A stretch of 64,000 bases of DNA from the NCBI GenBank assembly GCA_963674595.2, contig CAXXFV010000005.1:1-64000 (forward strand), read 5' to 3'. Source of the DNA: a bacterium. Its GTDB lineage: Bacteria; Zhuqueibacterota; Zhuqueibacteria; Residuimicrobiales; Krinioviventaceae. The notes under the pieces are model-generated. The model searched no databases. It was not told where the DNA came from and saw only the letters and a program-made list of their open reading frames with translations. Made by a program: the position numbers and the translations under genes. Numbering within the stretch: position 1 is the first letter of the stretch; each line of letters begins with the position of its first letter. Shown here in pieces: positions 11-29,154 of the stretch.

Positions 11-898
11 ATGAAAGGCATCATCCTGGCCGGAGGGGCCGGTACAAGACTTTATCCCATAACACAGGTTGTCAGTAAACAACTGCTGCCGATTTATGAC
101 AAGCCTATGATTTATTATCCCTTGTCTGTACTTATGCTTGCAGGTATTCGGGATATTTTAATCATCACAACACCGGAAGAACAGGCAAGATTTAAAGATT
201 TGCTCAAAGACGGTTCTCAATGGGGAATTAATCTGTCCTATGCTATCCAGCCTCAGCCAAATGGTCTGGCTGAAGCTTTTATAATCGGAGAATCGTTTAT
301 TAATAACGAACCTGTTTGTCTTATTTTGGGTGATAATATTTTTTACGGGCACGAGCTTACAGATGTTTTAAACCACAGCCGTTATATACTTTCCAAACAA
401 AACGGGGCAGTCATTTTTGGTTATTATGTACGTGATCCCCAGCGTTATGGCGTGGTTGAATTTTCAGAGGATGGAACTGTTCTGAGTCTGGAAGAGAAAC
501 CGCAAAAGCCCAAAAGTCATTACGCTATTGTTGGATTATATTTTTATGACGAACATGTTTCCAGCTATGCCAGGCAATTAAAACCTTCTGCACGCGGTGA
601 ACTGGAAATTACCGACCTGAATAAAATGTATTTACAACAAGGTTCTTTAAAAGTGGAACTGTTTGGACGTGGTTTTGCCTGGTTGGATACGGGTACTCAC
701 GAAAGCATGATGGCGGCTTCCAGTTTTATAAAAACGATCGAAGACCGGCAAGGCGTAAAAATTTCCTGTCCGGAAGAAGTTGCCTACAGGCAGGACTGGA
801 TTGATAAAAAAACTGTATTAAAGCAAGCCGAACAATACAACTCGAATCAATACGGCGATTATTTAAGGGAAATGATAGAGCAAAGTTATGATATTTGA
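11..898 (+). CDS. rfbA: Glucose-1-phosphate thymidylyltransferase
   Basis: [33 protein letters not shown] and WLDTGTH motifs of RmlA. Confidence 0.97.
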
Positions 899-1421
899 AC
901 CGACCGGTATTGATGGATTGTGGATTATAAAACCGCGTATTTTTGAGGATGACCGCGGTTATTTTTTTGAAAGTTATAACAAGAGCCAATTTGATAAAAA
1001 TATAATAAAGGCTGATTTTATACAGGACAATGAAGCCAGGTCAACCTATGGCGTGTTACGTGGATTACATTTTCAAACGGCGCCCTATGAGCAGGCTAAA
1101 CTGGTACGGGTGATTGAAGGAAGCGTGTTGGATGTTGTTGTTGATCTGAGAAAAGGTTCAGAAACCTATGGTCAGCACTTTTCAATTGAACTGGATGGCA
1201 GGGAAAAAACACAGCTTTTTGTACCACGGGGCTTTGCACATGGCTATATCGTTCTCAGTCCTAAAGCTGTTTTCGCCTACAAAGTCGACAATCATTATTC
1301 AAAAGCACATGAACAGGGCATCCGCTTTAATGACCCTTTCCTGAACATTAACTGGCAGGTTCCTGAAAAGGATGTCATCCTCTCGGAAAAGGATGCCATA
1401 TTGCCGTTTCTAAATGGATAG
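888..1421 (+). CDS. rfbC: dTDP-4-dehydrorhamnose 3,5-epimerase
   Basis: [20 protein letters not shown] and VPRGFAHG motifs of RmlC. Confidence 0.96.
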
Positions 1422-1512: not shown

Positions 1513-2982
1513 ATGAAAAAGTTTTTTAAAATTTTGCTGATATTTTTATCGGTTGTTTTTTCAACCTGTACAAAGAACTTGACGGAATCTGAGAGCTTTA
1601 GCCTGACCGGTAAGGTGACCCTGGAAGGGCAGGCCGACCACAGCGGTATAACTGTTGCTTTGTACCCCCTGGTAGAATTAGATACGGCAATCGTCAATAT
1701 GCAGAAACGTTTTCCAACTGTGGGAATACCCATTTCACAAGCCACCGAATTTGACCACCGCTTGTCTGAACCAGTCTACCAAGCTAAAACCGACAAAGAC
1801 GGCAACTATATTTTGTACAACATTCCCCAGGATGAATACAACTTGGTAGTAGAAAAAAAAGGGTTTGGCTGGCATTATCTATATAATGTGACTAATTCAA
1901 CCAAGCCGGAAAATATTAAATTACTGCCTGAAATAGAAGTACAGGGTTCACTGGGGGAATATACTGTATGGAATGAAAACCAACATTTTGTTATTATTGA
2001 TGATATTACCGTACCTGAAAACGCAACATTGGTTATTGAACCTGGCGTTGTCGCTCGTTTTAACGGATATTTTAAATTAACTGTTTTGGGAAATTTAATC
2101 GTTAGCGGCAGTGAAACTGCTATGGTTAATTTTACCCATAACCGTGTTGTTAATTTTTCCACATCAAATGCTGAATTATGGGAAAAAATAAATATTCAGG
2201 GAATAAACAGTTCAGGGCAAATTAACTATGCTATATTTACTTTTTTTGAAAACGGATTAAAATGCGATATAGGATTTCTAAATATAAAATATTCTAAATT
2301 TAAACAGGTGAATAAAAGTAATATTTCAAATTCGAAAACTTGTTTATTTTTAGAAAAGGAAGCAAACAGTAATATTGAAAATAATATTATAGAGTCAAAT
2401 TATTTAGGAATACTTGCCGGTTCAAAATCCAATGGAGAAATAAAAAATAATTTTTTTTACATAAAAAGAGATTATTTTATAGATAAAGAATTAATTAAAA
2501 ATGCAAAAAGTATTTATTGTAACTTAGCATATCAAGTAATTTCTGATAATATTTTTATGAATATTGGTAATTGTGCAATATCATCATGTTATGCTTCCAA
2601 TACTATAATTTCGAATAATTATTTCCAAAATTGTTATAATTCTATCGATGTTTATAATTTTATGGAACTTAATGATTTTTGTTCGATAGTTAATAACACG
2701 TTCGTAAGTACAGTGATGAAATGTATAAAGAGTTGGGAAGGTATCATTAATATTAATAATAATAATTTTTTTAATACTAATAATAATCCCATTTTAACTT
2801 TAGTTGGTTTTCCATTATATAATATCGATGCTAAAAATAATTATTGGGAGGTTTTTTCGGTAGACGAAATTCAAAGAAGAATTTTAGATGATCGAAAAGA
2901 TTATGAAATAGAAAATAATGACAAAGATGTGATTGTCGAACCATTTAGTAAAGCTAGATATTTGAATTCTTACCCTAGATAA
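1513..2982 (+). CDS. Exported (probable lipo)protein with N-terminal carboxypeptidase-regulatory-like Ig domain and C-terminal right-handed beta-helix
   Basis: Signal peptide ending VFSTC; TDKDGNY..YNLVVEKKG; Asn-rich repeats; DAKNNYW. Confidence 0.65.
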   Translation: MKKFFKILLIFLSVVFSTCTKNLTESESFSLTGKVTLEGQADHSGITVALYPLVELDTAIVNMQKRFPTVGIPISQATEFDHRLSEPVYQAKTDKDGNYILYNIPQDEYNLVVEKKGFGWHYLYNVTNSTKPENIKLLPEIEVQGSLGEYTVWNENQHFVIIDDITVPENATLVIEPGVVARFNGYFKLTVLGNLIVSGSETAMVNFTHNRVVNFSTSNAELWEKINIQGINSSGQINYAIFTFFENGLKCDIGFLNIKYSKFKQVNKSNISNSKTCLFLEKEANSNIENNIIESNYLGILAGSKSNGEIKNNFFYIKRDYFIDKELIKNAKSIYCNLAYQVISDNIFMNIGNCAISSCYASNTIISNNYFQNCYNSIDVYNFMELNDFCSIVNNTFVSTVMKCIKSWEGIININNNNFFNTNNNPILTLVGFPLYNIDAKNNYWEVFSVDEIQRRILDDRKDYEIENNDKDVIVEPFSKARYLNSYPR

Positions 2983-3119
2983 ATATTTCGAAATTAGAGT
3001 GTAAATTTTGAGGAGAATACATTTATTTTTGAACGATATGACTCCTGATTAATTTTAAAAAATAAACTAGCTGGACGATAATTAATTTTGTGTTGATTTT
3101 TACAGGTGCTGTCCAACAT

Positions 3120-4562
3120 ATGTCTTTAAAAGATAGAGCACTTCACGGTTTTTTTTGGAGTTTTATTGATAGTCTTGGCGGACAAGGAATACAATTTATT
3201 GTTAGCATTGTATTAGCTCGTATGTTGACGCCAAGAGAGTTTGGTTTGATTGGAATGATTACAATTTTTATTGCAATCTCTCAAACTTTTATCGATAGCG
3301 GATTCAGGAACGCATTAATAAGAAAACAAAAGTGTACAGATGATGACTATTCCACCGTTTTTTATTTCAACCTTTTGATCAGTGTATTAGTCTATTTAAT
3401 TTTATTTTTTAGCTCTGACATAATTGCAGAATTTTTTAATGAACCAAGATTATCTAAACTATTGAAGATTTTGGGCATTGGATTGATTTTTAATGCATTT
3501 GGTATTATTCAAAGCACTATTTTTACTAAAAATATTGATTTTAAGAAACAAACACGAATCTCGATTAGCTGCTCGCTTATTGCTGGTATTATAGCTATTG
3601 CTGTAGCTAAGGTCGGTTTTGGTGTATGGAGTTTAGTTATTCTTACATTAGTTAAGTATGGTCTCAGTTCAGTCTTTTTGTGGTTATGGACAATTTGGAG
3701 ACCGAAACTTATTTTTAATTTGAGATCATTTACAGAACTTTTCTCTTTTGGCAGTAACTTACTACTAAGTGGGCTACTAAATACGATATATGAAAATGTC
3801 TATTATTTTATAGTTGGAAAGTATTTCTCTGCTGTACATCTTGGCTACTATACAAGAGCAGACCAATTTAAAATGTTACCCTCTCAAACTTTGACAGGTA
3901 TTATTACACGTGTTAGCTATCCGGTTCTTTCCTCAATCCAAAATGACAAATACGCGTTAAAGCATGGCTATAAAAGAATCATTCGTACCACTACATTTGT
4001 ATCCTTTATACTCATGATTGGTATGGCCGCAGTAGCAAAACCTATGATAATAGTACTAATTGGTGTAAAATGGTTAATTGCTGCTGAATATCTCCAAATA
4101 CTGTGTTTTGTTGGAATGTTTTATCCATTGCATGCTTTAAATCTAAGTATGTTACAAGTCGTAGGAAGATCAGATTTATTTCTAAGACTTGAAATCATCA
4201 AAAAAATTTTAGCTATGCCGACGATCATTATCGGAATAATTTTTGGTATAAAACCGATGATTTTTGGGATGATTGGAAATACTTTACTTGCATTCTATTT
4301 GAATAGTTATTGGAGCGGTAAATTTATCTCATATTCTTTCTCTGAACAAGTAAAAGACATATTGCCATCTTTTATGCTTGCATGTATAATGGGTTTAACA
4401 GTATTTTTTGCAGGACAAATACTACATCTACATATCTATATAAATTTAGTCATTCAAATCGTACTTGGAGCAATGGTAACTTGGGGAATTTGTGAATTAT
4501 TTAGGTTCTCTGATTATCTTTACTTTAAAGCAAGAATTATTGATCATTTCTATCGAAGGTAG
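3120..4562 (+). CDS. wzx: Polysaccharide flippase (WzxC-like)
   Basis: SIVLARMLTPREFGLIG, DSGFRNALI, many TM helices; start moved to ATG at 3120. Confidence 0.9.
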   Translation: MSLKDRALHGFFWSFIDSLGGQGIQFIVSIVLARMLTPREFGLIGMITIFIAISQTFIDSGFRNALIRKQKCTDDDYSTVFYFNLLISVLVYLILFFSSDIIAEFFNEPRLSKLLKILGIGLIFNAFGIIQSTIFTKNIDFKKQTRISISCSLIAGIIAIAVAKVGFGVWSLVILTLVKYGLSSVFLWLWTIWRPKLIFNLRSFTELFSFGSNLLLSGLLNTIYENVYYFIVGKYFSAVHLGYYTRADQFKMLPSQTLTGIITRVSYPVLSSIQNDKYALKHGYKRIIRTTTFVSFILMIGMAAVAKPMIIVLIGVKWLIAAEYLQILCFVGMFYPLHALNLSMLQVVGRSDLFLRLEIIKKILAMPTIIIGIIFGIKPMIFGMIGNTLLAFYLNSYWSGKFISYSFSEQVKDILPSFMLACIMGLTVFFAGQILHLHIYINLVIQIVLGAMVTWGICELFRFSDYLYFKARIIDHFYRR

Positions 4563-4564
4563 AC

Positions 4565-5683
4565 ATGAATAAACTTAAGCATCCAATCTATGTTACGCAA
4601 CCAGCCTTGCCTCCGTTACAAGAATTTGTTAAAAGTTTAGAGAGAATATGGGAAAATAAAATAATTACTAATAACGGACCATTTCATCAACAATTTGAAA
4701 AAGAGCTAGCTCAGTATTTAGGGGTTAATCATATTTCTGTGTTTGCTAATGGTACCCTTGCCTTAATTGCTGCCCTTCAGGCATTGAGAATCTCTGGTGA
4801 AGTTATTACAACTCCATATAGCTTCGTTGCAACAACCCACTCGCTTTGGTGGAATAATATCAAACCTGTTTTTGTGGATATTGAAGAAAATTATTTAAAC
4901 TTAGATCCTGAAAAGGTTGAAGCGGCAATAACACCCCAGACTACAGCAATAATGGCTGTACATGTTTATGGTAATCCTTGTAATATTAAATCGTTACAGC
5001 AAATTGCTGATACATATGGTTTAAAATTAATATATGATGCGGCCCATGCCTTTGGTGTTAAGATTAATAAGGATTCAATATTAAACTATGGAGACTTATC
5101 AATATTAAGTTTCCACGCAACAAAGGCTTTTAATACTATTGAGGGTGGTGCAATAATTATGCAGGATGAAAAGACTAAGAAACGAATTGATTATTTAAAA
5201 AATTTTGGATTTGCTGGTGAAACCATAGTTGTAGGCCCAGGAATTAATGCGAAAATGAATGAAATACAAGCAGCATATGGACTACATCAGCTCAGATATG
5301 TTGATGAGTATATTGAAAAGAGGAGAAATATTACAAACAAATATAGAGAAGCACTAGGTAATATCGCTGGGATTAGGCTTCTAAAAGACATATGTGATGT
5401 AAAACATTCGTATTCATATTTTCCTATTTTTATTGAAAAGAATTTTAGCAAATCGAGGGATGAAGTATATGAAGAGCTTAAGAAGCACAATATCTTTGGA
5501 AGACGATATTTCTACCCATTAATTAGCCAATTTCCGACATATCGCGGTTTACCATCCGCCCATAAAGAGAATTTACCAATTGCTGAAAAAATGGCACAAG
5601 AGGTGTTGTGCTTACCTCTCTATCCAGCCTTAAGTAATGACCAAATAATTAGTATTATTAATATAATTCAAGGTATGGCATGA
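4565..5683 (+). CDS. DegT/DnrJ sugar aminotransferase, VioA-like (dTDP-4-amino-4,6-dideoxyglucose synthesis)
   Basis: IYVTQPALPP, ITNNGPFHQ, IYDAAHAFG, SFHATK (PLP lysine), GINAKMNE, RRYFYP. Confidence 0.88.
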   Translation: MNKLKHPIYVTQPALPPLQEFVKSLERIWENKIITNNGPFHQQFEKELAQYLGVNHISVFANGTLALIAALQALRISGEVITTPYSFVATTHSLWWNNIKPVFVDIEENYLNLDPEKVEAAITPQTTAIMAVHVYGNPCNIKSLQQIADTYGLKLIYDAAHAFGVKINKDSILNYGDLSILSFHATKAFNTIEGGAIIMQDEKTKKRIDYLKNFGFAGETIVVGPGINAKMNEIQAAYGLHQLRYVDEYIEKRRNITNKYREALGNIAGIRLLKDICDVKHSYSYFPIFIEKNFSKSRDEVYEELKKHNIFGRRYFYPLISQFPTYRGLPSAHKENLPIAEKMAQEVLCLPLYPALSNDQIISIINIIQGMA

Positions 5684-6894
5684 AAAAAGCGATAGTACTG
5701 GGTGGTACACATGATCACATTAGTTTGATAAAGAAATTGAAGGAGAGAGGGTATTATAATATTTTAATTGATTATTATAAAAACCCACCTGCGAAAGAGT
5801 TTGCCAACTTACATCTCCAGGAGAGTGCACTAGATTATGATACAGTTTTAGATATAGCTAGAAATGAAGAAGCGAACTTAGTAATCGCAACATGTATTGA
5901 CCAAGCTCTATTAATTTCGGCTCGTGTTTCAGAGGAATTGGGATTGCCCTGCCACATAACGTATAAACAGGCACAGGAAGTAACTGATAAATCTGTTATG
6001 AAAGGAATTTTATGCCAGAATGATATTGCGACATCAGTTTTTCAAAATATATACAAATCAAGTGAAATTATTTCAACACAATTGAGATATCCTCTCGTCG
6101 TTAAACCGGCGGATGCAAATAGTTCAAAAGGCGTACAAAAAGTTGAAAATTTTAGCGATGCAAGACAAGCAATTATAAATGCACTAACATTTTCTCGAAC
6201 ACAGACTGTCGTTTTGGAGGAATTCATAGATGGTATCGAAATTAGTGCTGATGTAATAATTTTGGCTGGTAAAGTGAAAGTTCTAATGATATCAGAAAAT
6301 CAGAAATCGAATTTAAATACAAACAAGTTTACTATAGCTTTAAACATTTTCAGACACAAGTTGTATGAAAAATATAAGAATAAAGTGGAATTAATTGCCT
6401 ATAAAATTGCTAAAGCATTTAACATCAATAATTCCCCTTTACTAATACAGTTGTTAGTAAAAGATGATGAATTGTATGTTATTGAATTCAGTTCGAGAAT
6501 TGGAGGTGGATCAAAAATTCACTTAATAAAAAAAGTTACTGGTTTTGATATAATCGAATTTACTCTTGCTAATATCCTAAATGAGACGTTAAATATTCAT
6601 TATAGCAGTTATATAAAATACGCTGCAATTAAATATATTTATGCACAAAAGGGTAATTTTTGTTACATTGACGGAACTCATGAGTTATTAAAAAGCAATA
6701 TAATCGAAGACTTTTTTATGTACAAATCATTTGATACCCAAATAAATAATAATATTTCTAGCACTGACAGGATTATGGGTTTTCTATCAGTGGCGCATAA
6801 TGAATTACAATTACACGATAAAATTAAAAAGGCATTTTATAATATTAAAATTATAAATGAATTAGGCCAAAATATTAAATTGAACGATCTTTAA
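5680..6894 (+). CDS. ATP-grasp domain protein (putative amide ligase)
   Basis: DKSVMK, YPLVVKPADANSSKGV, LEEFIDGIEISAD, VIEFSSRIGGG. Confidence 0.85.
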   Translation: MKKAIVLGGTHDHISLIKKLKERGYYNILIDYYKNPPAKEFANLHLQESALDYDTVLDIARNEEANLVIATCIDQALLISARVSEELGLPCHITYKQAQEVTDKSVMKGILCQNDIATSVFQNIYKSSEIISTQLRYPLVVKPADANSSKGVQKVENFSDARQAIINALTFSRTQTVVLEEFIDGIEISADVIILAGKVKVLMISENQKSNLNTNKFTIALNIFRHKLYEKYKNKVELIAYKIAKAFNINNSPLLIQLLVKDDELYVIEFSSRIGGGSKIHLIKKVTGFDIIEFTLANILNETLNIHYSSYIKYAAIKYIYAQKGNFCYIDGTHELLKSNIIEDFFMYKSFDTQINNNISSTDRIMGFLSVAHNELQLHDKIKKAFYNIKIINELGQNIKLNDL

Positions 6895-6937
6895 TCATCC
6901 AAGAGGATAAATTGTTAGTATTAACTTGAGTACTCAA

Positions 6938-8023
6938 ATGTCACAGAGAGAAAAAAAATATGAGATTGCAGTAATTGGGGCAGGTAATGGGGGGCAAGCA
7001 ATAGCTGGACATTTAGCCATGCAAGGACATGGAATAAGATTGTATGATATTAATCTCCAAAAATTATCAAGAATCACGGAAACTGGGGGGATAGTTCTAA
7101 CCGGTGAAATTGAAGGATTTGGTCGAATTAAGACTATCACTTCAAACATTTTTAAGGCGGTTAAAAATGCGGACATTATTATGGTCGCCACTACAGCTGA
7201 TGCGCATCGAAATTTAGCTTATGACCTTGCTTCAATTGTAAAAGATGGACAAATTATTATGCTTAATCCTGGAAGAACTTTGGGTGCTTATGAATTTCGA
7301 TATATTTTTCAAAATGAAAAAGTAACTAAAAAGGTTTACCTCGTTGAGACACAAAGTCTGGTTTATGCTTGTCGGAGTGAAGTACCTGGGAATGTTCGAA
7401 TAATTGGTTATAAGGACAACGTATATTATGCCTCTTTACCGAGTATAGACAATATTGAAGTGAAAAAGATTATTACTTCACTCTATGAAAGCTTTCAACA
7501 AGTAGAAAATGTTTTAGTGACAAGTCTAGAAAATTTTGGTGCAATCTTTCATACGGTGATTGTACTGACTAATGCATCAAAAATAGAACGAGGTGAAGAT
7601 TTTTATTTTTATAATGATATTACTCCTCGTGTTTGTTCGCTCCTTGAAAAAGTTGACAATGAGAGAATTTTATTAGCTAAAGCCTTCGGTATTAAAGTCA
7701 AGAGCGCAGAGAATTGGATCAGTTTTGCATATAAAAATATTGAGGGAAAGGATTTACTTTCTAAAATGCAGCATAATCCTGCGTATTATAAGATTATGGC
7801 TCCCAAAACTTTATTTTCAAGATTACTACTCGAAGACATACCCACTGGTATTTTGCCTATGATAGAATTAAGCAGCTTGGCCAATATTGAATTGCCCCTT
7901 ATGAAAGCAATTTATGAATTTTCAGCTAATCTATTAGGAATTGATTTTAAGATGGAGGGTAGAACTTTGAAAAATTTAGGATTGAGTCATTTTTCAACGC
8001 ATGAATTTTTAGATTTATTATAG
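6938..8023 (+). CDS. NAD/NADP octopine/nopaline (opine) dehydrogenase family protein
   Basis: IAVIGAGNGGQA Rossmann motif, LNPGRTLGA, ETQSLVYACR, RLLLEDIPTG, EGRTLKNLGL. Confidence 0.88.
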   Translation: MSQREKKYEIAVIGAGNGGQAIAGHLAMQGHGIRLYDINLQKLSRITETGGIVLTGEIEGFGRIKTITSNIFKAVKNADIIMVATTADAHRNLAYDLASIVKDGQIIMLNPGRTLGAYEFRYIFQNEKVTKKVYLVETQSLVYACRSEVPGNVRIIGYKDNVYYASLPSIDNIEVKKIITSLYESFQQVENVLVTSLENFGAIFHTVIVLTNASKIERGEDFYFYNDITPRVCSLLEKVDNERILLAKAFGIKVKSAENWISFAYKNIEGKDLLSKMQHNPAYYKIMAPKTLFSRLLLEDIPTGILPMIELSSLANIELPLMKAIYEFSANLLGIDFKMEGRTLKNLGLSHFSTHEFLDLL

Positions 8024-8026
8024 AAT

Positions 8027-9895
8027 ATGCCACAAAAAATTGTGAATAATGATATATTTGGGTTTATTCGTCCTTCCATAGACGCGCATACATTGGGAAT
8101 TTTCTCTGTATCACAATTATTAAAAGATTGCGGTTACAGGGTAATCATCGCTGATGTAAGAGTAACTGACGTAGTAGCTAAAATTTCCAAAACAAATAAT
8201 CTATTCCTATTTAAAAAATGGATTATTGAAAACGGGATATCAAGACTCGGTTTTAGTTATCGCCTCGATCCTATTAGTGCCCAAGAAAATTTTGGAAGGA
8301 TAATTTATTTATTAAATGAGATTAAAGTACTCGATGAAGTGGAAGGGCCAATAAAAAGTGTCTATTTTGCCGGTCTTCCTGAAGCATGTCAGCGAATTAA
8401 AATAGAATACAATGGCAGGTTCCCCATTTTTATTGGAGATGAAACACCAACTGAAACTTTACAAAAAATAGGCGTACCTTATTTTAAAATTCCGAATGAA
8501 ATACTTAAAGGCTCAGAATATGATGAATTTCGATTAAAATTTGGCAAAGAATTAATAGAAAAAGAAAGTTATTTATATAGGTCTCCTTTTGATATATCTG
8601 GTTATCCGAATTTTGGTACGAGAAAAGATACAGTAATTAGTAGAATAAAACATCGCCAAACCAAGAGACAATTACCTTTGATAAGAGTTCACGTAGGACC
8701 CTATAATCCAAATTACATAGAAGCTTTGAAAGAATTTCAAAGCTGGCTTAAAGAACTTGCAAATGATGGTTGGCTTGATATTGTTTCAATTGGATCGAGT
8801 CAGCTATCCCAATCCGATTTTGGAGCAAATTGGGGAGATAAGCCAAACGGTGGTGGTGTTCCAATTAATTCTGAATTGGATCTGATTAATATATGGGAAG
8901 CTTCAAGACCAATGCTGGTGAGGACCTATGCTGGTACCAAGAATATCCCAAATCTTGCAAGAATTTATGAAAATACTATAAATATTGCTTGGCATGCATT
9001 GTCATTTTGGTGGTTTTGTGAAATTGACGGTAGAGGTAGTTACACAGTTAAGTATAATCTTGAGCAGCATATAGAAACTCTGAAGATAATCGCAGCTACT
9101 GGTAAACCTTTTGAAGCGAATGTTCCACATCATTTTGCCTTTAGGGGAGCGGATGATTATAGTTATGTTTTGTCTGGATATTTGGCTGCAAAGACTGCCA
9201 AAAAATATGGCATCAGATTTTTTATTATTCAAAATATGTTAAATACACCAAAGCACACATGGGGTTTTCAGGATTTGGCAAAAAGCAGAGCACTGTTCAG
9301 ACTGATCAAAGAATTGGAGGATGAGCATTTTACAGTTTTTTTACAACCTCGTGCGGGGTTAGATTATTTTTCCCCAGATTTGGAAAAAGCGAAAGCTCAG
9401 TTAGCAGCTGTTACTGCATTGATGGATGATATTGTCCCATCAGATGAATTTAATCCGGATATCATCCACGTTGTTAGTTATTCAGAAGCGATTGGTCTTG
9501 CCACTCCAAAAATTATTAATGAAAGCATTAAAATCACATTTGAGGCCCTTGAGTCATATCGAAGGTTGAAAAAGCAGAATAAAATGGAAAATATGCAACT
9601 CCATCGTGATACAAACGACAGAACGTTTGATATATATAATGAAGTAAAAAAAATGGTTTTTTTAATAGAAGCTTTTTATATAGATTTGTACTCTCCTAAA
9701 GGATTGTATGATATTTTTAGAGATGGAATAATGCCTGTACCATATTTATGGGAAAGAAGAGATGAGTTTAAGGAAGCTGTAAAATGGTCAACTTCCTTAA
9801 TTGATGGTGGAATAAAAGTTGTAGATGCAAATAATATACCGATTTCGCCAAGCAATAGAATTCAAAATATAATTGAAACCAAAAGGGACAACTAG
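8027..9895 (+). CDS. Cobalamin-binding protein, putative B12-dependent mutase-like enzyme
   Basis: N-terminal DAHTLG (DxHxxG) with downstream GFSYRL and YFAG elements, then a ~450-aa putative catalytic domain; no CxxxCxxC. Confidence 0.65.
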   Translation: MPQKIVNNDIFGFIRPSIDAHTLGIFSVSQLLKDCGYRVIIADVRVTDVVAKISKTNNLFLFKKWIIENGISRLGFSYRLDPISAQENFGRIIYLLNEIKVLDEVEGPIKSVYFAGLPEACQRIKIEYNGRFPIFIGDETPTETLQKIGVPYFKIPNEILKGSEYDEFRLKFGKELIEKESYLYRSPFDISGYPNFGTRKDTVISRIKHRQTKRQLPLIRVHVGPYNPNYIEALKEFQSWLKELANDGWLDIVSIGSSQLSQSDFGANWGDKPNGGGVPINSELDLINIWEASRPMLVRTYAGTKNIPNLARIYENTINIAWHALSFWWFCEIDGRGSYTVKYNLEQHIETLKIIAATGKPFEANVPHHFAFRGADDYSYVLSGYLAAKTAKKYGIRFFIIQNMLNTPKHTWGFQDLAKSRALFRLIKELEDEHFTVFLQPRAGLDYFSPDLEKAKAQLAAVTALMDDIVPSDEFNPDIIHVVSYSEAIGLATPKIINESIKITFEALESYRRLKKQNKMENMQLHRDTNDRTFDIYNEVKKMVFLIEAFYIDLYSPKGLYDIFRDGIMPVPYLWERRDEFKEAVKWSTSLIDGGIKVVDANNIPISPSNRIQNIIETKRDN

Positions 9896-10860
9896 TGGAA
9901 ACATTTGAGGTACTTGAAACAAGGTACTTATTACAGAAAGAATACTTAGGAGAGGAGAAACAGGTGAATAGAATTACTCCGGTTGTTTCTGTAACTGTTG
10001 CTACCTACCAACACTCAACATATATAAGAGATTGTTTGGATGGGATTTTGATGCAGGAAACAACGTTTCCTTTTGAGATTATTGTTGGTGAGGATGAGTC
10101 TTCGGATGGTACCAGAGAAATATGTATTGAATATGCAAAAAAGCATCCGGATAAAATAAGACTGTTTTTACGAGATAGAAAGCTTTCACAATACTATGAG
10201 AATGGAAAGTTTGTTACACGTTTTAATGGGATTTGGAATAGGATGTCTGCTCGTGGAAAATATATAGCTTGGTGTGAAGGTGATGATTATTGGACGGATA
10301 TATATAAATTACAAAAGCAAGTAGATTTTCTAGAAGAAAATAAAAATATTAGTTTCTGCTTTCACAATGCTAAAATTTTTTATTGTGACAGCGGATACTC
10401 TGTTCCTTTTAATGTTAAACTTGAATCACAAAGATATACAACAAAAGATATTTTGATCAAAGGCTGGATTGTACCTACTGCTTCGATCGTTATGCGTAAA
10501 GAATGCTTACCTTCTCCATTACCTAGCTGGTTTTACAACGTTTCCAGTGGTGACTATGCTTTAGAGTTACTATTGACAACCAATGGCGATTCCTATTATA
10601 TGAACGAGACAATGAGTATTTATCGAAAAAATGCGTTAAATAGTTTAAGTTTGCAAGGTAACAAGCCGCTGGAACATCTCTTCAATCTTTATTATTTACA
10701 AAGAGAATTTTTGAAAATACACTATAAGAAGGATCCATTAATCATGCATTATATACTTCTACGGACTAAATATAATATTATGAAAGTATGGATATACAAC
10801 CACTTTCAATTCGTTGAATATTTAAAAAACAAAATATTCTATTCACAAAAATTTATGTAA
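9895..10860 (+). CDS. Glycosyltransferase family 2
   Basis: VSVTVATY, EIIVGEDESSDGT, GKYIAWCEGDDYW. Confidence 0.93.
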   Translation: METFEVLETRYLLQKEYLGEEKQVNRITPVVSVTVATYQHSTYIRDCLDGILMQETTFPFEIIVGEDESSDGTREICIEYAKKHPDKIRLFLRDRKLSQYYENGKFVTRFNGIWNRMSARGKYIAWCEGDDYWTDIYKLQKQVDFLEENKNISFCFHNAKIFYCDSGYSVPFNVKLESQRYTTKDILIKGWIVPTASIVMRKECLPSPLPSWFYNVSSGDYALELLLTTNGDSYYMNETMSIYRKNALNSLSLQGNKPLEHLFNLYYLQREFLKIHYKKDPLIMHYILLRTKYNIMKVWIYNHFQFVEYLKNKIFYSQKFM

Positions 10861-10954: not shown

Positions 10955-12181
10955 ATGTTGATTTTTTTTACAGTGCTTTTCATTTTTCTTTTTATCGTTG
11001 CGAAGAAAAAAGGCGAACCGTATGTACTAAGTAAATTCTTATTTTTGTTATACGGAATTTCTTTTTTGTGCTCTCTAATATTGGATATTTTTTATATTAC
11101 TCAATATGTGAATTGGGAACCTTTAGTATATTTTAGTATTATTTTAATATTATGGATATTTCCATTTAATAAGATAAGTTCAAGGACCATTTCTGAACAA
11201 TTGTATTTTAATCAAAGCCTGCTTAAAAAAATATCTATTTTCTTTATAGTATTCTCGTTAATTACGGTTTTGTTTTATTTGTTTCCCACAATTTTATTGT
11301 TCAATTCTGACTTTTTTTATGCTAGAACGAACTTATTTGATCCTGATAGATCTTTAATTACAGGTGCTCTATCGAGCTTTTGGGCAATAATACCTCCATT
11401 ATATCATATAAATCTGATTCTCTTTTTTCTTGCAACAAAATACAAATGGGATAAGAAGTATAGTATTTTGTTATTTATTTCTTCTTTTAGTTTTCCTATT
11501 CAGACACTAGCGTTTTTTGGACGTGATGGCATGGTTTTATGGATATTAAATTTTTTCATTTTGTATTACGTCTTCAAATATAAAATGAATCGACATAGAT
11601 TGAATTATATTAGGAATAAGTTGCTTATATCTTTTTCTACAATATTTATTTTTTTATGGATAATCTCCTCATCTAGGTTTGGTGTTACGAGTATTAATTA
11701 TAACATCTATGGGGGTAAAGTATTGCTATCATTTATTGATTACATGGGACAGCAACCAGAGAATTTTTCTCGTGCATTTTTAATTGATTATCGAGAACAG
11801 CCGAACTATTTTCCTACAATTAATATTCTAAAATCAAAATTCTTAGGGATGAAAGTAGCAAATGATGATACAAAAAAGGAGCTCACAAGTTTGGGGCTGC
11901 TTGAATATTATAATGTTTTTGGATTTTTTTTGAAAAAGTTTATTTGGGAGTCCGGTAAGATAGGGACTCTTTTTATATCTATATTTTTTTTAATAATTTT
12001 TAGTAAACTTCGAAATAAATTTTTGCGGGATACAAGACTATCATCGTTTATAATTCTGTATACATTTTATCAAATTCCCATGAATGGGGTCTTCTATTAT
12101 CGACAGGGTGTTGGATCGTTTGATATTGCCTATGGTTTTATAATTGGACTTTGTCTGTATTTGAGAAATAATAATTCGTAA
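10955..12181 (+). CDS. wzy: O-antigen/oligosaccharide repeat-unit polymerase (Wzy-like)
   Basis: ~10 hydrophobic segments, very AT-rich, located between glycosyltransferases. Confidence 0.7.
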   Translation: MLIFFTVLFIFLFIVAKKKGEPYVLSKFLFLLYGISFLCSLILDIFYITQYVNWEPLVYFSIILILWIFPFNKISSRTISEQLYFNQSLLKKISIFFIVFSLITVLFYLFPTILLFNSDFFYARTNLFDPDRSLITGALSSFWAIIPPLYHINLILFFLATKYKWDKKYSILLFISSFSFPIQTLAFFGRDGMVLWILNFFILYYVFKYKMNRHRLNYIRNKLLISFSTIFIFLWIISSSRFGVTSINYNIYGGKVLLSFIDYMGQQPENFSRAFLIDYREQPNYFPTINILKSKFLGMKVANDDTKKELTSLGLLEYYNVFGFFLKKFIWESGKIGTLFISIFFLIIFSKLRNKFLRDTRLSSFIILYTFYQIPMNGVFYYRQGVGSFDIAYGFIIGLCLYLRNNNS

Positions 12182-12223: not shown

Positions 12224-13570
12224 ATGTTAAAAGATCAACCAAGGGTTCTCATTATCAGCCATAATTCACTTTCTTTGCACCAAAATAATGGTAAAACGTT
12301 GCATTCATTATTCCAAGAATGGCCCACCGATTCAATAGCACAACTTTATTTTCAGAGTGAGGTTCCAGAATCTAGTAAATTCAACAATTTTTTTCGCTTA
12401 ACAGATTTGGACATTATCAAGACAAAAATTTCTTTAAATAAAAAAAAATGTGGACAACAATTATCAATAAATAGGGAAGACCGTTCAAAATATAGTTTTA
12501 TTGCAACTCTAAGAAGAATTTTTGTGGGTCTTTTGAAAGACAATATTGGAATGATTTTGATTTTAAGGAATAAGATTTATGGAACAGACCTTTGGAAATC
12601 TGAAAATCTAATTCACTGGATTGGAAAATTTAAACCTGATATTATTTTTTATTTAGGTGGTAATTATGTGTTTTCATTTCGAATTACAGCTTGGATATCA
12701 GAAAAATTTAAAATACCCTTCGTTGTCTATCTCACTGATGACTATGTTCTGAATTTAAAACCGAAAAACAATTTGGAAAAAGATATTATTAATGAATTAA
12801 AAAATACCTATTCAAAAACATTTAAAGAAGCACGTAAACGATTTGTTATTGGCGAGTTAATGGCAAAATCTTTTTCTGAGTACTTTAAATATGATTTTAT
12901 ACCAATTATGAACACTACCGAAATTCGAGATCATTCGCTTAACGAAGAATGTACTGATAATGAAAACGTTAGAGTGGTATATATGGGGGGATTACATCTT
13001 AACCGATGGAAAAAGCTCGTTGAATTTGGTCAGATTGTTTATGATATTAATCAAAATTTTACCAATAGAAAAAAAATTGTAGTTGAAATTTTTTCCATTT
13101 CTCCTCCAAGAAAAAAAATTATTAATCTTTTAAATAATTCACCATTAAGATATTTTGGTGCATTGTATGGTGGTGCAGTAGTGAAAAAATTAAATGAAGC
13201 TGATATTTTATTGCATGTCGAAAGTGATGAAGAACCATATCGTTCTTTAACAAAATTGTCAATTTCGACTAAGCTATCCGAATATTTTGCATCTCACAAA
13301 TGTGTGATTGGTTTTGGTCCCTCTGATGTAGCTTCAATACGTTTACTATCAGATAATAACATAGGAATTACTTTGACAGAATTAGATTCGAACGAAGACA
13401 AAAGAGAAAAAATATTGAAGTTAGTTAAAGATAGAAAAATATTAGAGAGCTACGGGGAAAGGAGTTACCAATATGCCCTTAAAAATTTTCATGGAGATGT
13501 AGTCAGGGAAAAGCTTAAAATCTTATTGAATGATTGTATTATACAAAGAAACGAGGGAAATAATGCTTGA
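12224..13570 (+). CDS. Glycosyltransferase, GT-B fold (GT4-like)
   Basis: RVLIISHN, VVYMGGLH, ADILLHVES, SISTKLSEY. Confidence 0.75.
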   Translation: MLKDQPRVLIISHNSLSLHQNNGKTLHSLFQEWPTDSIAQLYFQSEVPESSKFNNFFRLTDLDIIKTKISLNKKKCGQQLSINREDRSKYSFIATLRRIFVGLLKDNIGMILILRNKIYGTDLWKSENLIHWIGKFKPDIIFYLGGNYVFSFRITAWISEKFKIPFVVYLTDDYVLNLKPKNNLEKDIINELKNTYSKTFKEARKRFVIGELMAKSFSEYFKYDFIPIMNTTEIRDHSLNEECTDNENVRVVYMGGLHLNRWKKLVEFGQIVYDINQNFTNRKKIVVEIFSISPPRKKIINLLNNSPLRYFGALYGGAVVKKLNEADILLHVESDEEPYRSLTKLSISTKLSEYFASHKCVIGFGPSDVASIRLLSDNNIGITLTELDSNEDKREKILKLVKDRKILESYGERSYQYALKNFHGDVVREKLKILLNDCIIQRNEGNNA

Positions 13571-18116: not shown

Positions 18117-18719
18117 ATGTATTTAAAATTTAAAAATGTTATTGATATCATTTTGGGTATAATATTAATTTTAATTTTTTCTCCATTATTTTTAGTATTA
18201 ATAATACTTTGTCTGATTTTCCAAGGAAAACCAGTTTTCTTTATTCAAACAAGGCCAGGATTGTCTGGTAAATTATTTAATATAGTTAAGTTTAGAACTA
18301 TGTTAAATAGAACAAATAAGGATAGTCTACTCCTTCATGATTCAAAAAGACTAACAAAATTTGGTTTTTTTTTAAGAAAAACAAGCTTGGATGAACTACC
18401 AGAATTATTAAATATAGTAAAGAGACAAATGAGTTTTGTTGGGCCTCGTCCTCTTTTACCTCAGTACTTGGATCGATACACACCTGAGCAAATGAGACGT
18501 CATGAGGTGAAGCCAGGAATTACAGGATGGGCCCAAGTGAATGGTAGAAATACTTTATCTTGGGAAGAAAAATTTAAATTGGATGTTTGGTACGTTGATA
18601 ATATCTCTTTTAAACTAGATATGAAAATATTATTTTTGACACTTGTTAAAGTGATCAAACGTGAAGGAATAAACCACCCAGGTACGGCAACAATGGAAGA
18701 ATTTTTAGGATCTGAATGA
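18117..18719 (+). CDS. Initiating phosphoglycosyl transferase (PglC/EpsL-like)
   Basis: KFRTM, LRKTSLDELP, GPRPLL, KPGITGWAQVNGRN. Confidence 0.92.
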   Translation: MYLKFKNVIDIILGIILILIFSPLFLVLIILCLIFQGKPVFFIQTRPGLSGKLFNIVKFRTMLNRTNKDSLLLHDSKRLTKFGFFLRKTSLDELPELLNIVKRQMSFVGPRPLLPQYLDRYTPEQMRRHEVKPGITGWAQVNGRNTLSWEEKFKLDVWYVDNISFKLDMKILFLTLVKVIKREGINHPGTATMEEFLGSE

Positions 18720-19348
18720 TGACAGATATTCTTGTAATAGGTGCTGGAGGGCATGGTCAAGTCGTTGCAGATATTCTAAGTATGAATCCATCTCATAATA
18801 TTTTAGGTTTTCTAGATGACGATGAAAGTCTTAAAGGTACTCATATTTTAGATTATACTGTGTTGGGGCTTATTGATGATCTTTCAAATATTAAGCATGA
18901 TGCTGTTATTATTGCTATTGGAAATAATAAAATTCGGAAACAAATTGCTGAAAGGATTAAGAGGATAACCCGCTTTTGTAATGCGATCCATCCATCTGCT
19001 ATTATTGCCAAAGATGTAATTATTGGAACTGGGATCGTTATTTGTGCCGGTGCTGTTGTTAATCCAGGTTCCCTTGTTGGTAATCATGTTATCTTGAATA
19101 CCTGTAGTTCTGTTGATCACCATAATATTTTACAAAAATATATACATATCGCACCAGGGGCTCATTCTGGTGGTAATGTAAAAATGAATGAAGGTACTTT
19201 TGTGGGGATTGGGGCATCCATTGTTCCTGGAATAAGTATAGGTCAATGGGTTGTTGTTGGTGCAGGTTCTGTTGCATTAAATAATGTTGATGATTTTCAG
19301 GTTGTTGTTGGAAATCCAGCTAGAGTAATTAGGGATTTAAGAAAATAA
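18716..19348 (+). CDS. Hexapeptide-repeat sugar N-acetyltransferase (PglD/NeuD-like)
   Basis: IGAGGHG, AIGNN, IHPSA, VDHH, VVVGNPAR. Confidence 0.9.
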   Translation: MMTDILVIGAGGHGQVVADILSMNPSHNILGFLDDDESLKGTHILDYTVLGLIDDLSNIKHDAVIIAIGNNKIRKQIAERIKRITRFCNAIHPSAIIAKDVIIGTGIVICAGAVVNPGSLVGNHVILNTCSSVDHHNILQKYIHIAPGAHSGGNVKMNEGTFVGIGASIVPGISIGQWVVVGAGSVALNNVDDFQVVVGNPARVIRDLRK

Positions 19349-19349
19349 A

Positions 19350-20486
19350 ATGGATAAAATTTGGCTTTCATCACCTCATATGGGTGAGACTGAACTTGGA
19401 TATGTTATAGATGCTTTTAAGAGCAACTGGATTGCACCTTTGGGTCCATATGTAGATAACTTTGAATATGAAATTTCACGTTATATAAAAGTTGGGCACT
19501 GTGCTGCCCTCAGTTCCGGTACGGCTGCTATTCATTTGGCTTTAATTGCATTGGGGATTGGAAGAGGGGATGAAGTATTATGTTCTACGTTTACTTTTTC
19601 TGCCTCTGCTAATCCTATTCTTTATCAGTCAGCGGTTCCAGTATTTATCGAGAGTGAGGACAAGACATGGAATATGAATCCATTTTGGTTAAAAAAAGCA
19701 ATTGAAGATCGCATTCACAAGGGCCAAAAACCAAAGGCTTTAATTTTAGTGCATCTTTATGGAATGCCTGCACAAATTGATGAAATTTTAAATATTTGTG
19801 AATTTTACCGTATTCCTGTGATTGAAGACGCAGCCGAAGCTCTGGGTTCCAAATATAAGGACAGGTTTTTAGGTAGCTTCGGAACAATAGGGATTTTTTC
19901 CTTTAATGGTAACAAAATTATTACTACCTCAGGTGGTGGAGCACTTGTTTCATCTGATAACGAAATTGTCAATAAAATCAGGTTTCTGGCTACTCAGGCA
20001 CGAGACGAGGCCCCACATTATCAACATTCTCAGGTAGGTTATAATTATCGAATGAGTAACATACTGGCTGCATTAGGTTTAGGGCAAATTCAAGTGTTGG
20101 ATGATAGGGTGCGTCAACGGCGCTCTAACCATTATTACTATTATCAGGCATTAAAAGATATTGATGGAATTTCTTTTTTATCTGAGCCATCAGAAGATTA
20201 TTTTTCCAACCATTGGTTGACTTGTATTTTAGTTGATCCCAGATATACTGCTGGAATAACACACGAGGATATTCGGTTAGCACTTTTAAATGAAAATATC
20301 GAATCAAGACCACTATGGAAACCGATGCATTTACAGCCTGTTTTTACTACTTACCCATATTATGGTGATGGTATATCTGAAAGACTTTTTAAAAATGGAT
20401 TATGTTTACCTTCAGGATCAAATTTATCTAAAAATGTTTTAAAAAAAATAACAAGTATCGTTCGAAAAACTGTTAAAAAAGATTAG
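19350..20486 (+). CDS. PLP-dependent sugar aminotransferase (PglE/EpsN-like)
   Basis: IWLSSPHM, SGTAAIHL, EDAAEALGS, SFNGNKIITTSGGG. Confidence 0.92.
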   Translation: MDKIWLSSPHMGETELGYVIDAFKSNWIAPLGPYVDNFEYEISRYIKVGHCAALSSGTAAIHLALIALGIGRGDEVLCSTFTFSASANPILYQSAVPVFIESEDKTWNMNPFWLKKAIEDRIHKGQKPKALILVHLYGMPAQIDEILNICEFYRIPVIEDAAEALGSKYKDRFLGSFGTIGIFSFNGNKIITTSGGGALVSSDNEIVNKIRFLATQARDEAPHYQHSQVGYNYRMSNILAALGLGQIQVLDDRVRQRRSNHYYYYQALKDIDGISFLSEPSEDYFSNHWLTCILVDPRYTAGITHEDIRLALLNENIESRPLWKPMHLQPVFTTYPYYGDGISERLFKNGLCLPSGSNLSKNVLKKITSIVRKTVKKD

Positions 20487-24462: not shown

Positions 24463-25881
24463 TCATTGAAAGACACCCTGTATATACCCAAGTACCTCTT
24501 TGGGCTGATTTAAAATTTGATTAAATAATAACTTTGATGAAAAATATGGATATTTTTTTAAAAATTTCCATATTCTTCTGTTTTTCTTAAAAATTTTAAA
24601 ACCAATTTCATCCCTTATTTTCTCCAGATCTTGAGATGATAAACTATAAGTCCTTACATTTGCATGAAACAGGTCATATTTAGAATAATCATCTTTATTG
24701 GTAATTAATTCCTGCAGGAGAAGATCATTACGAATCTCGGTTTTTGGAAATGGTGTTAGAATGAGAAAAAGGGGGATATCTACATTGATATGATTAGCGA
24801 ATTGAAAATTTTCATAAATAATTTCACGTGTATCACCCGGATTCCCGATAATGAATGATCCAATCACAGTAACACCATAACCCTGTAATTCATTAATGAC
24901 ATCTTTGGTTCCAGAAAAGTCAAGAGATTTAGTATCCAAAAAATTAGTGTTTTTATCGAAACTATTTTCTATACCCAGAAAGCATATATCCACTCCAGCC
25001 TCTGCCATTAGTTTAGGTAATCCAGGCGCTCGTGTTAAACCAGGAATACTCGCCTGAACAGCATACTTTATATTATTCAACTTGTTTTTTACAATTTCTT
25101 GACAAATATGCTCAAAACGCACTGAATCTACTGTTATATTATCATCCGCTATTAGAATTGCTCGAGCACCATTGTCATATGAATTTTTAATATCTTGTAT
25201 AACACGTTCAATTTTATATTTTCTGAACGTTGAACCATACATCTGTCTAATACTGCAAAATTTACAGCGATTAACACATCCCCGGGATGTTTCAATAACA
25301 TCCGCAGGTATTCCTAGAATGTGAAATCCCTTATTTAAAATTCGATTCTCTCTATCTGGAAATTTTACATAATCCAAATCAAGGACTTTATCCATAGGAT
25401 TATGGACAGCAATTCCATTGTCTATATATGAGAGAGAAGGGATTTTATGGTATTGCTTCTTCCCCCGAATCTGTTCTATGAGCAGGTTAAATGTGATTTC
25501 ACCTTCATTTCTTAGAATAAAATCAATGTATTGTTTTTGATCACTTGCAAATATATTTTCAAAATCAATTGTAGGATGATAACCGCCTAAAACAATTTTA
25601 ATCTGGCTATTATATTCTTTCACCAATCTGACAAGTTGCATTGTATTATCAAATTGAAAAGTCATACAACTGAATCCAACAACATCTGGTCTATAGAATT
25701 TGAGGATTTTAAGTAAAAATTGATCAACTCTGTTTTTAATTAAAACAAGATCCAGTATTTTTATATCTATATCATCGTTTAATATATTTGAAGCAATAGA
25801 ATTCAAGCCCAGGTTTGGAAGTTTTGTGAGTCTATCAAACCCTAAAATTGTTTTAGGACTACCAATAAGTAAAATGCGCAT
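24463..25881 (-). CDS. B12-binding radical SAM protein (class B methyltransferase-like)
   Basis: PDVVGFS, LGGYHPT, ETSRGCVNRCKFC (CxxxCxxC), DDN, LGIEN, FIIGNPGDT. Confidence 0.9.
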   Translation of the reverse strand: MRILLIGSPKTILGFDRLTKLPNLGLNSIASNILNDDIDIKILDLVLIKNRVDQFLLKILKFYRPDVVGFSCMTFQFDNTMQLVRLVKEYNSQIKIVLGGYHPTIDFENIFASDQKQYIDFILRNEGEITFNLLIEQIRGKKQYHKIPSLSYIDNGIAVHNPMDKVLDLDYVKFPDRENRILNKGFHILGIPADVIETSRGCVNRCKFCSIRQMYGSTFRKYKIERVIQDIKNSYDNGARAILIADDNITVDSVRFEHICQEIVKNKLNNIKYAVQASIPGLTRAPGLPKLMAEAGVDICFLGIENSFDKNTNFLDTKSLDFSGTKDVINELQGYGVTVIGSFIIGNPGDTREIIYENFQFANHINVDIPLFLILTPFPKTEIRNDLLLQELITNKDDYSKYDLFHANVRTYSLSSQDLEKIRDEIGFKIFKKNRRIWKFLKKYPYFSSKLLFNQILNQPKEVLGYIQGVFQ

Positions 25882-28034: not shown

Positions 28035-28574
28035 CTATTTCTCATTGATACTAGATAATTCAATTTTTTTCCATTTTAATTCTCTGGACATCGTATCTGT
28101 CGTAAACTGTTTTTTCTCTTCTACCTTGCGGTTATTTTTATAAGCATCCAAAAAAAGTTTGCGTGTGGCGGCAATGGCAGTGGTGGATCGTATTTCAGGT
28201 CCCCACTGTACAAGAAGAGGATATAAATGCCCTTCACCGTTTTTCTGCATTCGTTTTTCTATCACCATCATCATACAGGAACCAATGGATGGATCATAAA
28301 AATGGTCAAGATACATTTTAATCCGATTCCATGCCACTTGAGCTTGCTGTTGAAGAGGATCCTGTCCCCGTAAATCTGCCGGTGACGGGAAAAAAGCATT
28401 TTTATTTCTAAAATATAAAACAGCATTCTTTTCAATTTCCTTAAAACTCAGGTCCTGTAATATCTTGAAATAAAAATCTATCTTCTCTACGGTCAACGGT
28501 TGTTTATTATTCACAGCAACAGTTTCCATTTGCCACATGAGTTTTGAAAAACATTCTCTATCTTTTTCAGTCAT
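28035..28574 (-). CDS. Phage replication-associated protein (helicase loader/inhibitor-like N-terminus)
   Basis: FYFKILQDLS...FFPSPADLR motif typical of phage genes next to replication initiators. Confidence 0.5.
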   Translation of the reverse strand: MTEKDRECFSKLMWQMETVAVNNKQPLTVEKIDFYFKILQDLSFKEIEKNAVLYFRNKNAFFPSPADLRGQDPLQQQAQVAWNRIKMYLDHFYDPSIGSCMMMVIEKRMQKNGEGHLYPLLVQWGPEIRSTTAIAATRKLFLDAYKNNRKVEEKKQFTTDTMSRELKWKKIELSSINEK

Positions 28575-28738
28575 ATATCAACCTCTATGATAAGACATTA
28601 AGATGTTACCTTTTTATTAATTTCATAATCAATAGATGTTACATCTGTTGATTGATTATTTTTTATCAAATTTCTCAGGCCGTCGTATTTAAACGACGAC
28701 CCGGAGTATTAAAAGAACATGGCAACAAACCAAAATTC

Positions 28739-29149: not shown

Positions 29150-29154
29150 TTTTA

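Follow-up and report, generated by a model that had tools for sequence, protein, structure and literature searches.

The window analysed here comprises the first 64,000 nucleotides of contig CAXXFV010000005.1 (C5; 74.5 kb) of the assembly GCA_963674595.2, a genome assigned to the Krinioviventaceae in the phylum Zhuqueibacterota. It begins at the first base of the contig, and its forward strand carries a surface-glycan cluster of the Wzx/Wzy type that spans to about position 23974 and has a G+C content of 32.3%, against 38.8% for the genome. Within this cluster, at 4565-9895, lie four genes that encode a sugar aminotransferase, an ATP-grasp ligase, an opine dehydrogenase and a protein with a cobalamin (B12) binding motif. 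We refer to the last two as the pair. The four genes and the two that flank them are the following:

3090-4562, forward strand: Wzx-type flippase (Polysacc_synt_3, E 1.5e-94; 10 hydrophobic segments)
4565-5683, forward strand: DesI/VioA-like sugar 4-aminotransferase dependent on pyridoxal phosphate (PLP) (Pfam DegT_DnrJ_EryC1, E 2e-103)
5680-6894, forward strand: ATP-grasp amide ligase, L-amino-acid-ligase-like (ATP-grasp_4, E 2e-14; Dala_Dala_lig_C)
6926-8023, forward strand: opine dehydrogenase, predicted to be of the type preferring acidic amino acids (Octopine_DH, E 2.5e-37)
8027-9895, forward strand: B12 protein of 622 residues, putative adenosylcobalamin mutase (DAHTLG motif and GlmE-like barrel)
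9895-10860, forward strand: glycosyltransferase of family 2 (GT2; Glycos_transf_2, E 3e-17)

The six genes overlap or are separated by gaps of at most 31 nt. More specifically, the wzx stop ends at 4562 and the aminotransferase ATG follows at 4565, an ATGA overlap joins the aminotransferase and ATP-grasp genes, the dehydrogenase starts with TTG 31 nt after the ATP-grasp gene, the B12 gene starts with ATG 3 nt after the dehydrogenase, and base 9895 is common to the stop of the B12 gene and the GTG start of the GT2 gene. Four tightly linked genes between wzx and a GT2 gene, with no acetyl- or formyltransferase next to the VioA-like gene, had been described in an earlier sequence-only reading of the window. 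Both points were confirmed, the former by the open reading frames and their junctions and the latter by a Pfam scan from wzx to the GT2 gene, in which neither type of transferase was found. The arrangement is not a chance one, because the same gene set recurs in other phyla (see below).

The identities proposed for the four products in that reading all hold, on Pfam matches, solved relatives and, for the B12 protein, motif and fold. The top NCBIfam family of the aminotransferase is DesI (TIGR04427), with 300.6 bits against a cut-off of 650. Its best solved relative is DesI as well (2po3, E 4e-66), and the PLP lysine is retained, in SFHATK, aligned to the DesI lysine. The enzyme is likely a dTDP-4-keto-6-deoxyglucose 4-aminotransferase; since it scores under the equivalog cut-off, the exact sugar and position are likely rather than certain. 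The closest solved relative of the ATP-grasp protein is a carboxylate-activating enzyme, the L-amino acid ligase 3vot (E 4.7e-24).

The opine dehydrogenase and its B12 partner

The dehydrogenase matches Octopine_DH (PF02317) with 128.6 bits against a cut-off of 30 and is clearly homologous to CENDH, the N-(1-D-carboxyethyl)-L-norvaline dehydrogenase of Arthrobacter (1bg6, also ArODH; E 3.6e-72). Its Rossmann motif GAGNGG aligns with GLGNGG of 1bg6, and its residues R117, G205, H209 and D304 correspond to positions 111, 198, 202 and 297 of ArODH. The catalytic His-Asp dyad is invariant in 18/18 aligned dehydrogenases. Among 64 dehydrogenases linked to a B12 gene, all 64 have the histidine and the arginine at position 111, and 63 have the glycine at position 198. 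According to Telek et al. 2024 (PMC10787698), metagenomic opine dehydrogenases (mODHs) with Arg111 and Gly198 prefer L-Asp or L-Glu together with pyruvate, and mutagenesis that swaps residues 111 and 198 switches this preference. ArODH/CENDH and the mODHs thus resemble the window enzyme in homology, in the catalytic His/Asp and in the Arg/Gly pair, where the likeness to the mODHs is based on the published residue rule. The window enzyme differs in having Asp-Ile where 55/64 relatives carry an arginine linked to NADPH use. Judged from these signatures, it is a true opine dehydrogenase, of the type predicted to prefer acidic amino acids.

The 622-residue partner has the sequence DAHTLG at residues 19-24, and the DxHxxG motif is retained in 17/18 aligned relatives. 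Its sole Pfam match, to B12-binding, is under the threshold (19.6 bits versus 32.1), and the assignment is based on motif and fold. An AlphaFold2 model of the full protein, built with 24 relatives, has a predicted local distance difference test score (pLDDT) of 85. The C-terminal 420 residues superpose on the glutamate mutase subunit GlmE and on the B12-dependent aminomutases. Residues 195-614 align with GlmE (1cb7_B) with a VIA-align Z of 27.5 and a root-mean-square deviation of 3.4 Å over 376 residues (Foldseek E 5.7e-13), at 16% identity. The other barrels give Z values of 26.4 (lysine 5,6-aminomutase), 24.4 (ornithine 4,5-aminomutase) and 18.9 (methylmalonyl-CoA mutase, MCM), and the aminomutase alignment spans residues 198-581. 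The N-terminal 164 residues, folded alone (pLDDT 88), have the small subunit of 2-hydroxyisobutyryl-CoA mutase (HCM) as top Foldseek match (E 2e-4), followed by MttC, MCM, MetH and GlmS (1i9c_A, E 9.5e-3). A highly conserved insert at residues 256-283 is modelled with low confidence.

Because the barrel superposes on GlmE and the aminomutases, and the N-terminal domain on B12 domains, motif and modelled fold together indicate a single-chain cobalamin enzyme of the mutase type rather than a methyltransferase. The earlier reading had allowed for skeleton rearrangement or methyl transfer; the former is retained, the latter is not. Glutamate mutase, GlmS/GlmE (MutS/MutE; 1cb7, 1i9c, 6h9e), provides the best barrel match and shares a B12 domain with a His-on DxHxxG motif. 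Nevertheless, it consists of two subunits, whereas in the window protein both parts are fused in a single chain, the B12 domain being N-terminal, and it differs further from the window protein, which has the 256-283 insert, an opine dehydrogenase as partner and no match to the GlmE family PF06368. No gene for a GlmL-type reactivase lies beside the window B12 gene, and a PF06368 search of the source genome returned nothing, and hence no canonical GlmE. Weak PF06368 matches in seven genomes of the phylum were considered as intermediates and rejected, as these are MCM-like proteins. Likewise, a likeness between NGGG in the B12 protein and NEGGG in GlmE was dropped, as the strand order does not fit.

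In the family of the window protein 150 residues are invariant, 69 of which are retained in a shorter paralogue. This paralogue (543-551 residues) has CxHxxG instead of DxHxxG, shares about 37% identity in the barrel and has a Pfam B12-binding score of 45 bits against the cut-off of 32.1. Five barrel arginines (R220, R299, R336, R373 and R442) are invariant, also in the paralogue, and would suit a polycarboxylate substrate. A PduO-type adenosyltransferase is encoded in the source genome, as are at least seven further proteins that exceed the Pfam cut-off for B12-binding.

Genomic contexts of the pair

The pairing itself was predicted earlier. Zhang, Rodionov, Gelfand and Gladyshev (2009; PMC2667541) describe a novel B12 family, in 11 genomes of four phyla, that has a distant N-terminal B12 domain and is always found beside an octopine/nopaline dehydrogenase, with D-Ala-D-Ala-ligase-like and asparagine-synthase genes near; they urged experiments, and their description names no glycan context, mutase fold or substrate class. 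The features are those of the window pair and its partners, the match being one of description. In the literature we searched, subscription journals being outside its coverage, no paper was found that characterises the pair or an ATP-grasp enzyme that acylates 4-amino-4,6-dideoxyglucose (Qui4N).

The family has at least 2895 clusters at E <= 0.001 (8000 candidates scored), with relatives in at least 577 species genomes. The 80 loci we examined are the best 80 of at least 577 related stretches in species genomes. A dehydrogenase is adjacent to the B12 gene in 60 of the 71 loci that have at least 1300 bp upstream. In pairs on the same strand it lies upstream of the B12 gene in 62/63, with the frames at most 200 nt apart in 53/62. 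Moreover, an even sample of 401 Bacteroidota genomes contained two dehydrogenases of this type, each followed by a B12 relative. In five metagenome-assembled genomes (MAGs) of the Rikenellaceae (L005, L007, L008, L010, L011) the B12 protein has no adjacent opine dehydrogenase, and in the two such loci scanned or gene-called, three methyltransferase-type genes (PEMT, LCM, Methyltransf_11) precede the B12 gene and a TonB-dependent receptor follows it. Orthologues were found in 3/167 sampled genomes of the phylum of the window, and in none of 18 other genomes of the same family. The shorter paralogue is present in five further genomes of the phylum sample, and the two loci inspected, at 7514-10378 of L108 and 4678-7497 of L109, both on the reverse strand, have an opine dehydrogenase just before it and a Na+/H+ antiporter or MscS channel as neighbour.

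Context was counted in the 48 loci whose flanks reach at least 5 kb upstream and at least 1.5 kb downstream. A dehydrogenase is present in 41 of these, an ATP-grasp gene in 21, an aminotransferase in 17, a GT2 in 11 and an AsnB-like gene in 11; dehydrogenase, ATP-grasp, aminotransferase and GT2 occur together in ten. The sequence-only reading had proposed co-occurrence of the gene families in other glycan loci as a check, and such co-occurrence was found. Loci with the gene order of the window are present in Bacteroidota, in a cyanobacterium (L013) and in MAGs of delta- and gammaproteobacteria; their proteins are 41-68% (aminotransferase), 41-46% (ligase), 48-52% (dehydrogenase) and 53-65% (B12 protein) identical to those of the window. 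A DegT gene, that is, one of the aminotransferase family, is also present in 22 of the 29 loci with an ATP-grasp gene, and 17 of all 80 loci have a related GT2 no more than 1.5 kb from the B12 gene.

The cassette varies. Some relatives carry an additional GNAT gene (L001, L021, L022, L074) or S-adenosylmethionine-dependent methyltransferase gene (L012, L022, L036, L041, L049, L061), in some cases between ligase and dehydrogenase. Two or three ATP-grasp genes, PylC-like ones among them, are found in L013, L015 and L045. L004 and L006 have a GT2 gene, a DegT gene and a gene for a membrane protein of the LPG-synthase type. The pair of L020 comes after genes for a polysaccharide deacetylase and a further ATP-grasp protein, and the deacetylase, to judge by its family, would be a second way to expose a sugar amine. 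In the cyanobacterial locus (1784-5696, forward strand) the stretch between aminotransferase and ligase encodes two HpcH/citrate-lyase-like proteins, a MaoC/mesaconyl-CoA-hydratase-like protein, a PglD-like acetyltransferase and a PylC-like ATP-grasp protein. By their families, these inserted enzymes resemble those of mesaconate/methylaspartate metabolism.

Loci without an ATP-grasp gene can have an AsnB-like amide-forming enzyme after the pair instead (11/48), as found in MAGs of Planctomycetota, deltaproteobacteria, WOR-3 and others, where the dehydrogenase often has an EIIA domain. Rfam at gathering thresholds was applied to the window and five loci and gave a single match, an nhaA-I (Li+/Na+) riboswitch at 5023-5074 on the reverse strand of L033. 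It lies about 1.2 kb upstream of an EIIA-opine dehydrogenase/B12/AsnB operon, on the opposite strand and ahead of a different small gene. A FastTree phylogeny of the B12 proteins (78 rows, midpoint-rooted, proteins under 590 residues excluded), read from topology alone, groups them by context and places the window protein in the glycan/ATP-grasp half, beside L001.

The opine dehydrogenase-B12 pair is thus a widespread module of a general kind, found with AsnB-like enzymes or by itself as well. The logic common to the contexts is the pair plus an amide-forming enzyme, and where this enzyme is an ATP-grasp ligase, a predicted source of a sugar amine is usually near.

The surrounding glycan cluster

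The other genes of the cluster are listed below.

11-898, forward strand: rmlA, glucose-1-phosphate thymidylyltransferase, source of dTDP-glucose (Pfam NTP_transferase, E 1e-74)
888-1421, forward strand: rmlC-like dTDP-sugar 3,5-epimerase (Pfam dTDP_sugar_isom, E 2e-68)
1513-2982, forward strand: right-handed beta-helix protein of 489 residues with a CarboxypepD_reg-like stretch, between rmlC and wzx; no PHROG or NCBIfam family apart from the repeat
10955-12181, forward strand: Wzy-like repeat-unit polymerase (TIGR04370, E 1e-8, below cut-off; 9 hydrophobic segments)
12224-13570, forward strand: orf448, possible GT-B/GT4-like glycosyltransferase from Atlas features (0.99); no Pfam or NCBIfam match and no membrane segment
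12224-23974, forward strand: remainder of the cluster, with orf448, FnlA/B/C-like genes, a GT1, an initiating Bac_transf, a PglD-like acetyltransferase, a second DegT gene, a PglF-like dehydratase and a Wzi-like protein (Pfam; orf448 by Atlas features)
18716-19348, forward strand: the PglD-like acetyltransferase, the sole acetyltransferase of the cluster, adjoining the second DegT gene
19350-20486, forward strand: the second DegT gene (Pfam)

If orf448 is GT-B/GT4-like, as its Atlas features suggest, the cluster would have four transferases. No uronic-acid dehydrogenase was found among the scanned reading frames of the cluster, so that the acid should contribute the carboxylate, and the sugar the amine, of an amide.

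Just past the cluster, on the opposite strand (24463-25881), lies a gene for a B12-binding radical SAM protein (Pfam B12-binding, 67 bits, and Radical_SAM), a second cobalamin enzyme less than 15 kb from the putative mutase. Further downstream, at 28035-30745 on the reverse strand, a phage-like recombination set encodes helicase-loader-like and exonuclease-like proteins (PHROGs) and an Mgm101-type annealing protein (Pfam, E 8e-46). Lying next to the glycan locus, this set is probably what is left of a prophage, or else a mobile element.

Proposed pathway and competing explanations

The gene identities, folds, residue signatures and conserved synteny observed suggest the following substrates, order of steps, product and acceptor. 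The four genes and the GT2 gene would constitute a portable cassette that decorates a Wzx/Wzy glycan. RmlA, a 4,6-dehydratase (not found here, see below) and the DesI-like aminotransferase would provide a dTDP-4-amino-4,6-dideoxyhexose. The mutase would rearrange the carbon skeleton of an ordinary, glutamate-type metabolite by adenosylcobalamin radical chemistry, and the dehydrogenase would reductively join an acidic amino acid with pyruvate; either order of the two enzymes would lead to a polycarboxylic acid resembling N-(1-carboxyethyl)-3-methylaspartate. The ATP-grasp enzyme would then activate one carboxylate and form an amide bond with the sugar's 4-amino group, after which the acylated sugar would be transferred to the repeat unit by the GT2. 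The evidence leans, if only slightly, towards this account, in which a rearranged acidic amino acid with an N-(1-carboxyethyl) group is produced by the pair, amide-linked by the ligase to the 4-amino sugar and transferred with it by the GT2. The pathway of the sequence-only reading survives as the best reading; that reading did not register that the pair is a module of general occurrence and that the pairing had been predicted in 2009.

A GlmE-like partner fits an acidic-substrate dehydrogenase, as glutamate and 3-methylaspartate are both acidic amino acids. In glutamate mutase the equilibrium toward 3-methylaspartate is unfavourable, and the reductive step of the dehydrogenase would pull it. 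For the type of end product there is a direct chemical precedent: according to a review table, alanopine, N-(1-carboxyethyl)alanine, is amide-linked to Qui4N in the O-antigen that Providencia alcalifaciens O35 makes, in line with the earlier statement that carboxyethyl-amino-acyl groups occur on O-antigens. Alanopine differs in that it needs no B12 step, and in the literature searched the genes for the O35 group were not found.

Several observations weigh against the proposed pathway. The B12 protein has no NCBIfam match and no match to Met_asp_mut_E (PF06368) at E <= 0.001; against solved chains phmmer found nothing, and a profile search only chance-level matches (E 0.6). Alignment to GlmE with hhalign is weak, with a probability of 1-3% even with 120 and 40 sequences. 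GlmE binds glutamate through Arg66, Arg100, Arg149, Glu171 and Tyr181; in this weak alignment, R299 falls opposite R149, D334 opposite E171 and E487 opposite E330, in consistent order, while GlmE R100 lies in a gap, R66 is unclear and the other arginines are unmatched. The aminomutases nearly tie with GlmE in fold (Z 26.4 versus 27.5), which leaves room for another rearrangement. For the supply of dTDP-4-keto-6-deoxyglucose, no RmlB scores over the TIGR01181 cut-off in the 97.6% complete assembly. The best candidate (192 bits versus 365) is on contig C16 and carries an in-frame stop; rmlB could be hidden by the end of the contig, which lies just upstream of rmlA. Many pairs are found away from glycan loci, and the product is therefore not glycan-specific. 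The GNAT gene of some cassettes sits oddly with an opine, the amine of which is secondary. Finally, as the best of a larger set, the 80 loci are biased to close relatives.

The strongest competitor holds that the B12 enzyme runs another reaction, either an aminomutase-type 1,2-amino shift or a carbon-skeleton shift with the completed opine, a 2-oxo acid or a 2-hydroxy acid as substrate, which would yield a different unusual acyl acid. The lysine 5,6- and ornithine 4,5-aminomutases are likewise B12 radical enzymes that act on amino acids, and their barrel likeness is nearly as strong as that of GlmE. The missing Pfam GlmE match points the same way, as do the five invariant barrel arginines, which exceed the three of GlmE and would fit a tricarboxylic opine substrate. 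Aminomutases, however, need PLP bound by a lysine of the B12 domain, and the window family has no invariant lysine in residues 1-150. In addition, the dehydrogenase signature indicates amino acids of the Asp/Glu type, and the GlmE alignment covers more of the protein (195-614) than the aminomutase alignment (198-581). We regard another reaction as rather unlikely.

Two further alternatives appear improbable, each to a similar degree. The product of the pair could be a small molecule that stays free, such as a stress solute, with the pair residing in the glycan locus without feeding the glycan. Most family members are indeed outside glycan loci, and the pair is also found with AsnB-like genes, mechanosensitive channels or a Na+/H+ antiporter and, in L033, near the nhaA-I riboswitch. 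In the window, however, it lies tightly between the ATP-grasp and GT2 genes, starting 31 nt after the former and sharing a base with the latter, with 3 nt between its own two genes, and neither AsnB, channel nor riboswitch was found in the cluster by the Pfam and Rfam scans. This order is repeated in Bacteroidota, the cyanobacterium and proteobacterial MAGs, and the glycan-context B12 proteins cluster in the tree. We give as little credence to a role of the ATP-grasp enzyme in extending a peptide-like side chain, or to another acceptor, with the aminotransferase product being modified otherwise. Its closest solved relative joins two amino acids, and the loci with two or three ATP-grasp genes suggest multi-step peptide-like chains. 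The window, on the other hand, has a single ATP-grasp gene, which overlaps that of the aminotransferase; no other acylating enzyme adjoins this aminotransferase, and DegT genes accompany ATP-grasp genes in most loci (22/29).

That the 622-residue protein is no cobalamin enzyme at all, but a cofactor-free flavodoxin-like domain on a non-radical barrel, would agree with the sub-threshold Pfam score, the modest N-terminal Foldseek matches (2e-4 at best) and the CheY- and flavodoxin-like folds among these, yet it is very hard to credit given that the motif His and Gly are conserved, also in the paralogue that passes Pfam, that B12 enzymes are the best matches for both domains, and that a motif past the eighth barrel strand, ending in ...SEA..LATP, aligns with the GlmE and MCM motifs.

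The proposed pathway can be extended to a more specific and more tentative suggestion, which we consider possible though not probable. The cassette would install a group of the N-(1-carboxyethyl)-3-methylaspartyl type on a 4-amino-4,6-dideoxyhexose, and in many other phyla the same acid would be amidated by an AsnB-like enzyme to a free, possibly salt-protective metabolite. If so, the synthesis of a bacterial surface glycan would for the first time include a radical rearrangement by adenosylcobalamin, and one B12 reaction would lie behind two biological uses that differ widely.

The family of B12-dependent mutases is small, and each new reaction in it has been notable. Although the pairing was predicted in 2009 and an opine on Qui4N is known, B12 radical chemistry is of a kind not yet shown for bacterial surface sugars; in agreement with the earlier reading, no characterised B12 step in the synthesis of a glycan side group was found in the literature covered. 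For the large, long-predicted B12 branch to which the window protein belongs, the glycan cassette offers a tractable route to its reaction, because the product should be covalently fixed on a polysaccharide, which can be purified and its structure determined by nuclear magnetic resonance. If the proposal is true, it would add a new class of acidic opine-like side groups and a cobalamin requirement to surface-glycan biosynthesis, with a bearing on serotype diversity, the B12 economy of microbial communities and glycoengineering.

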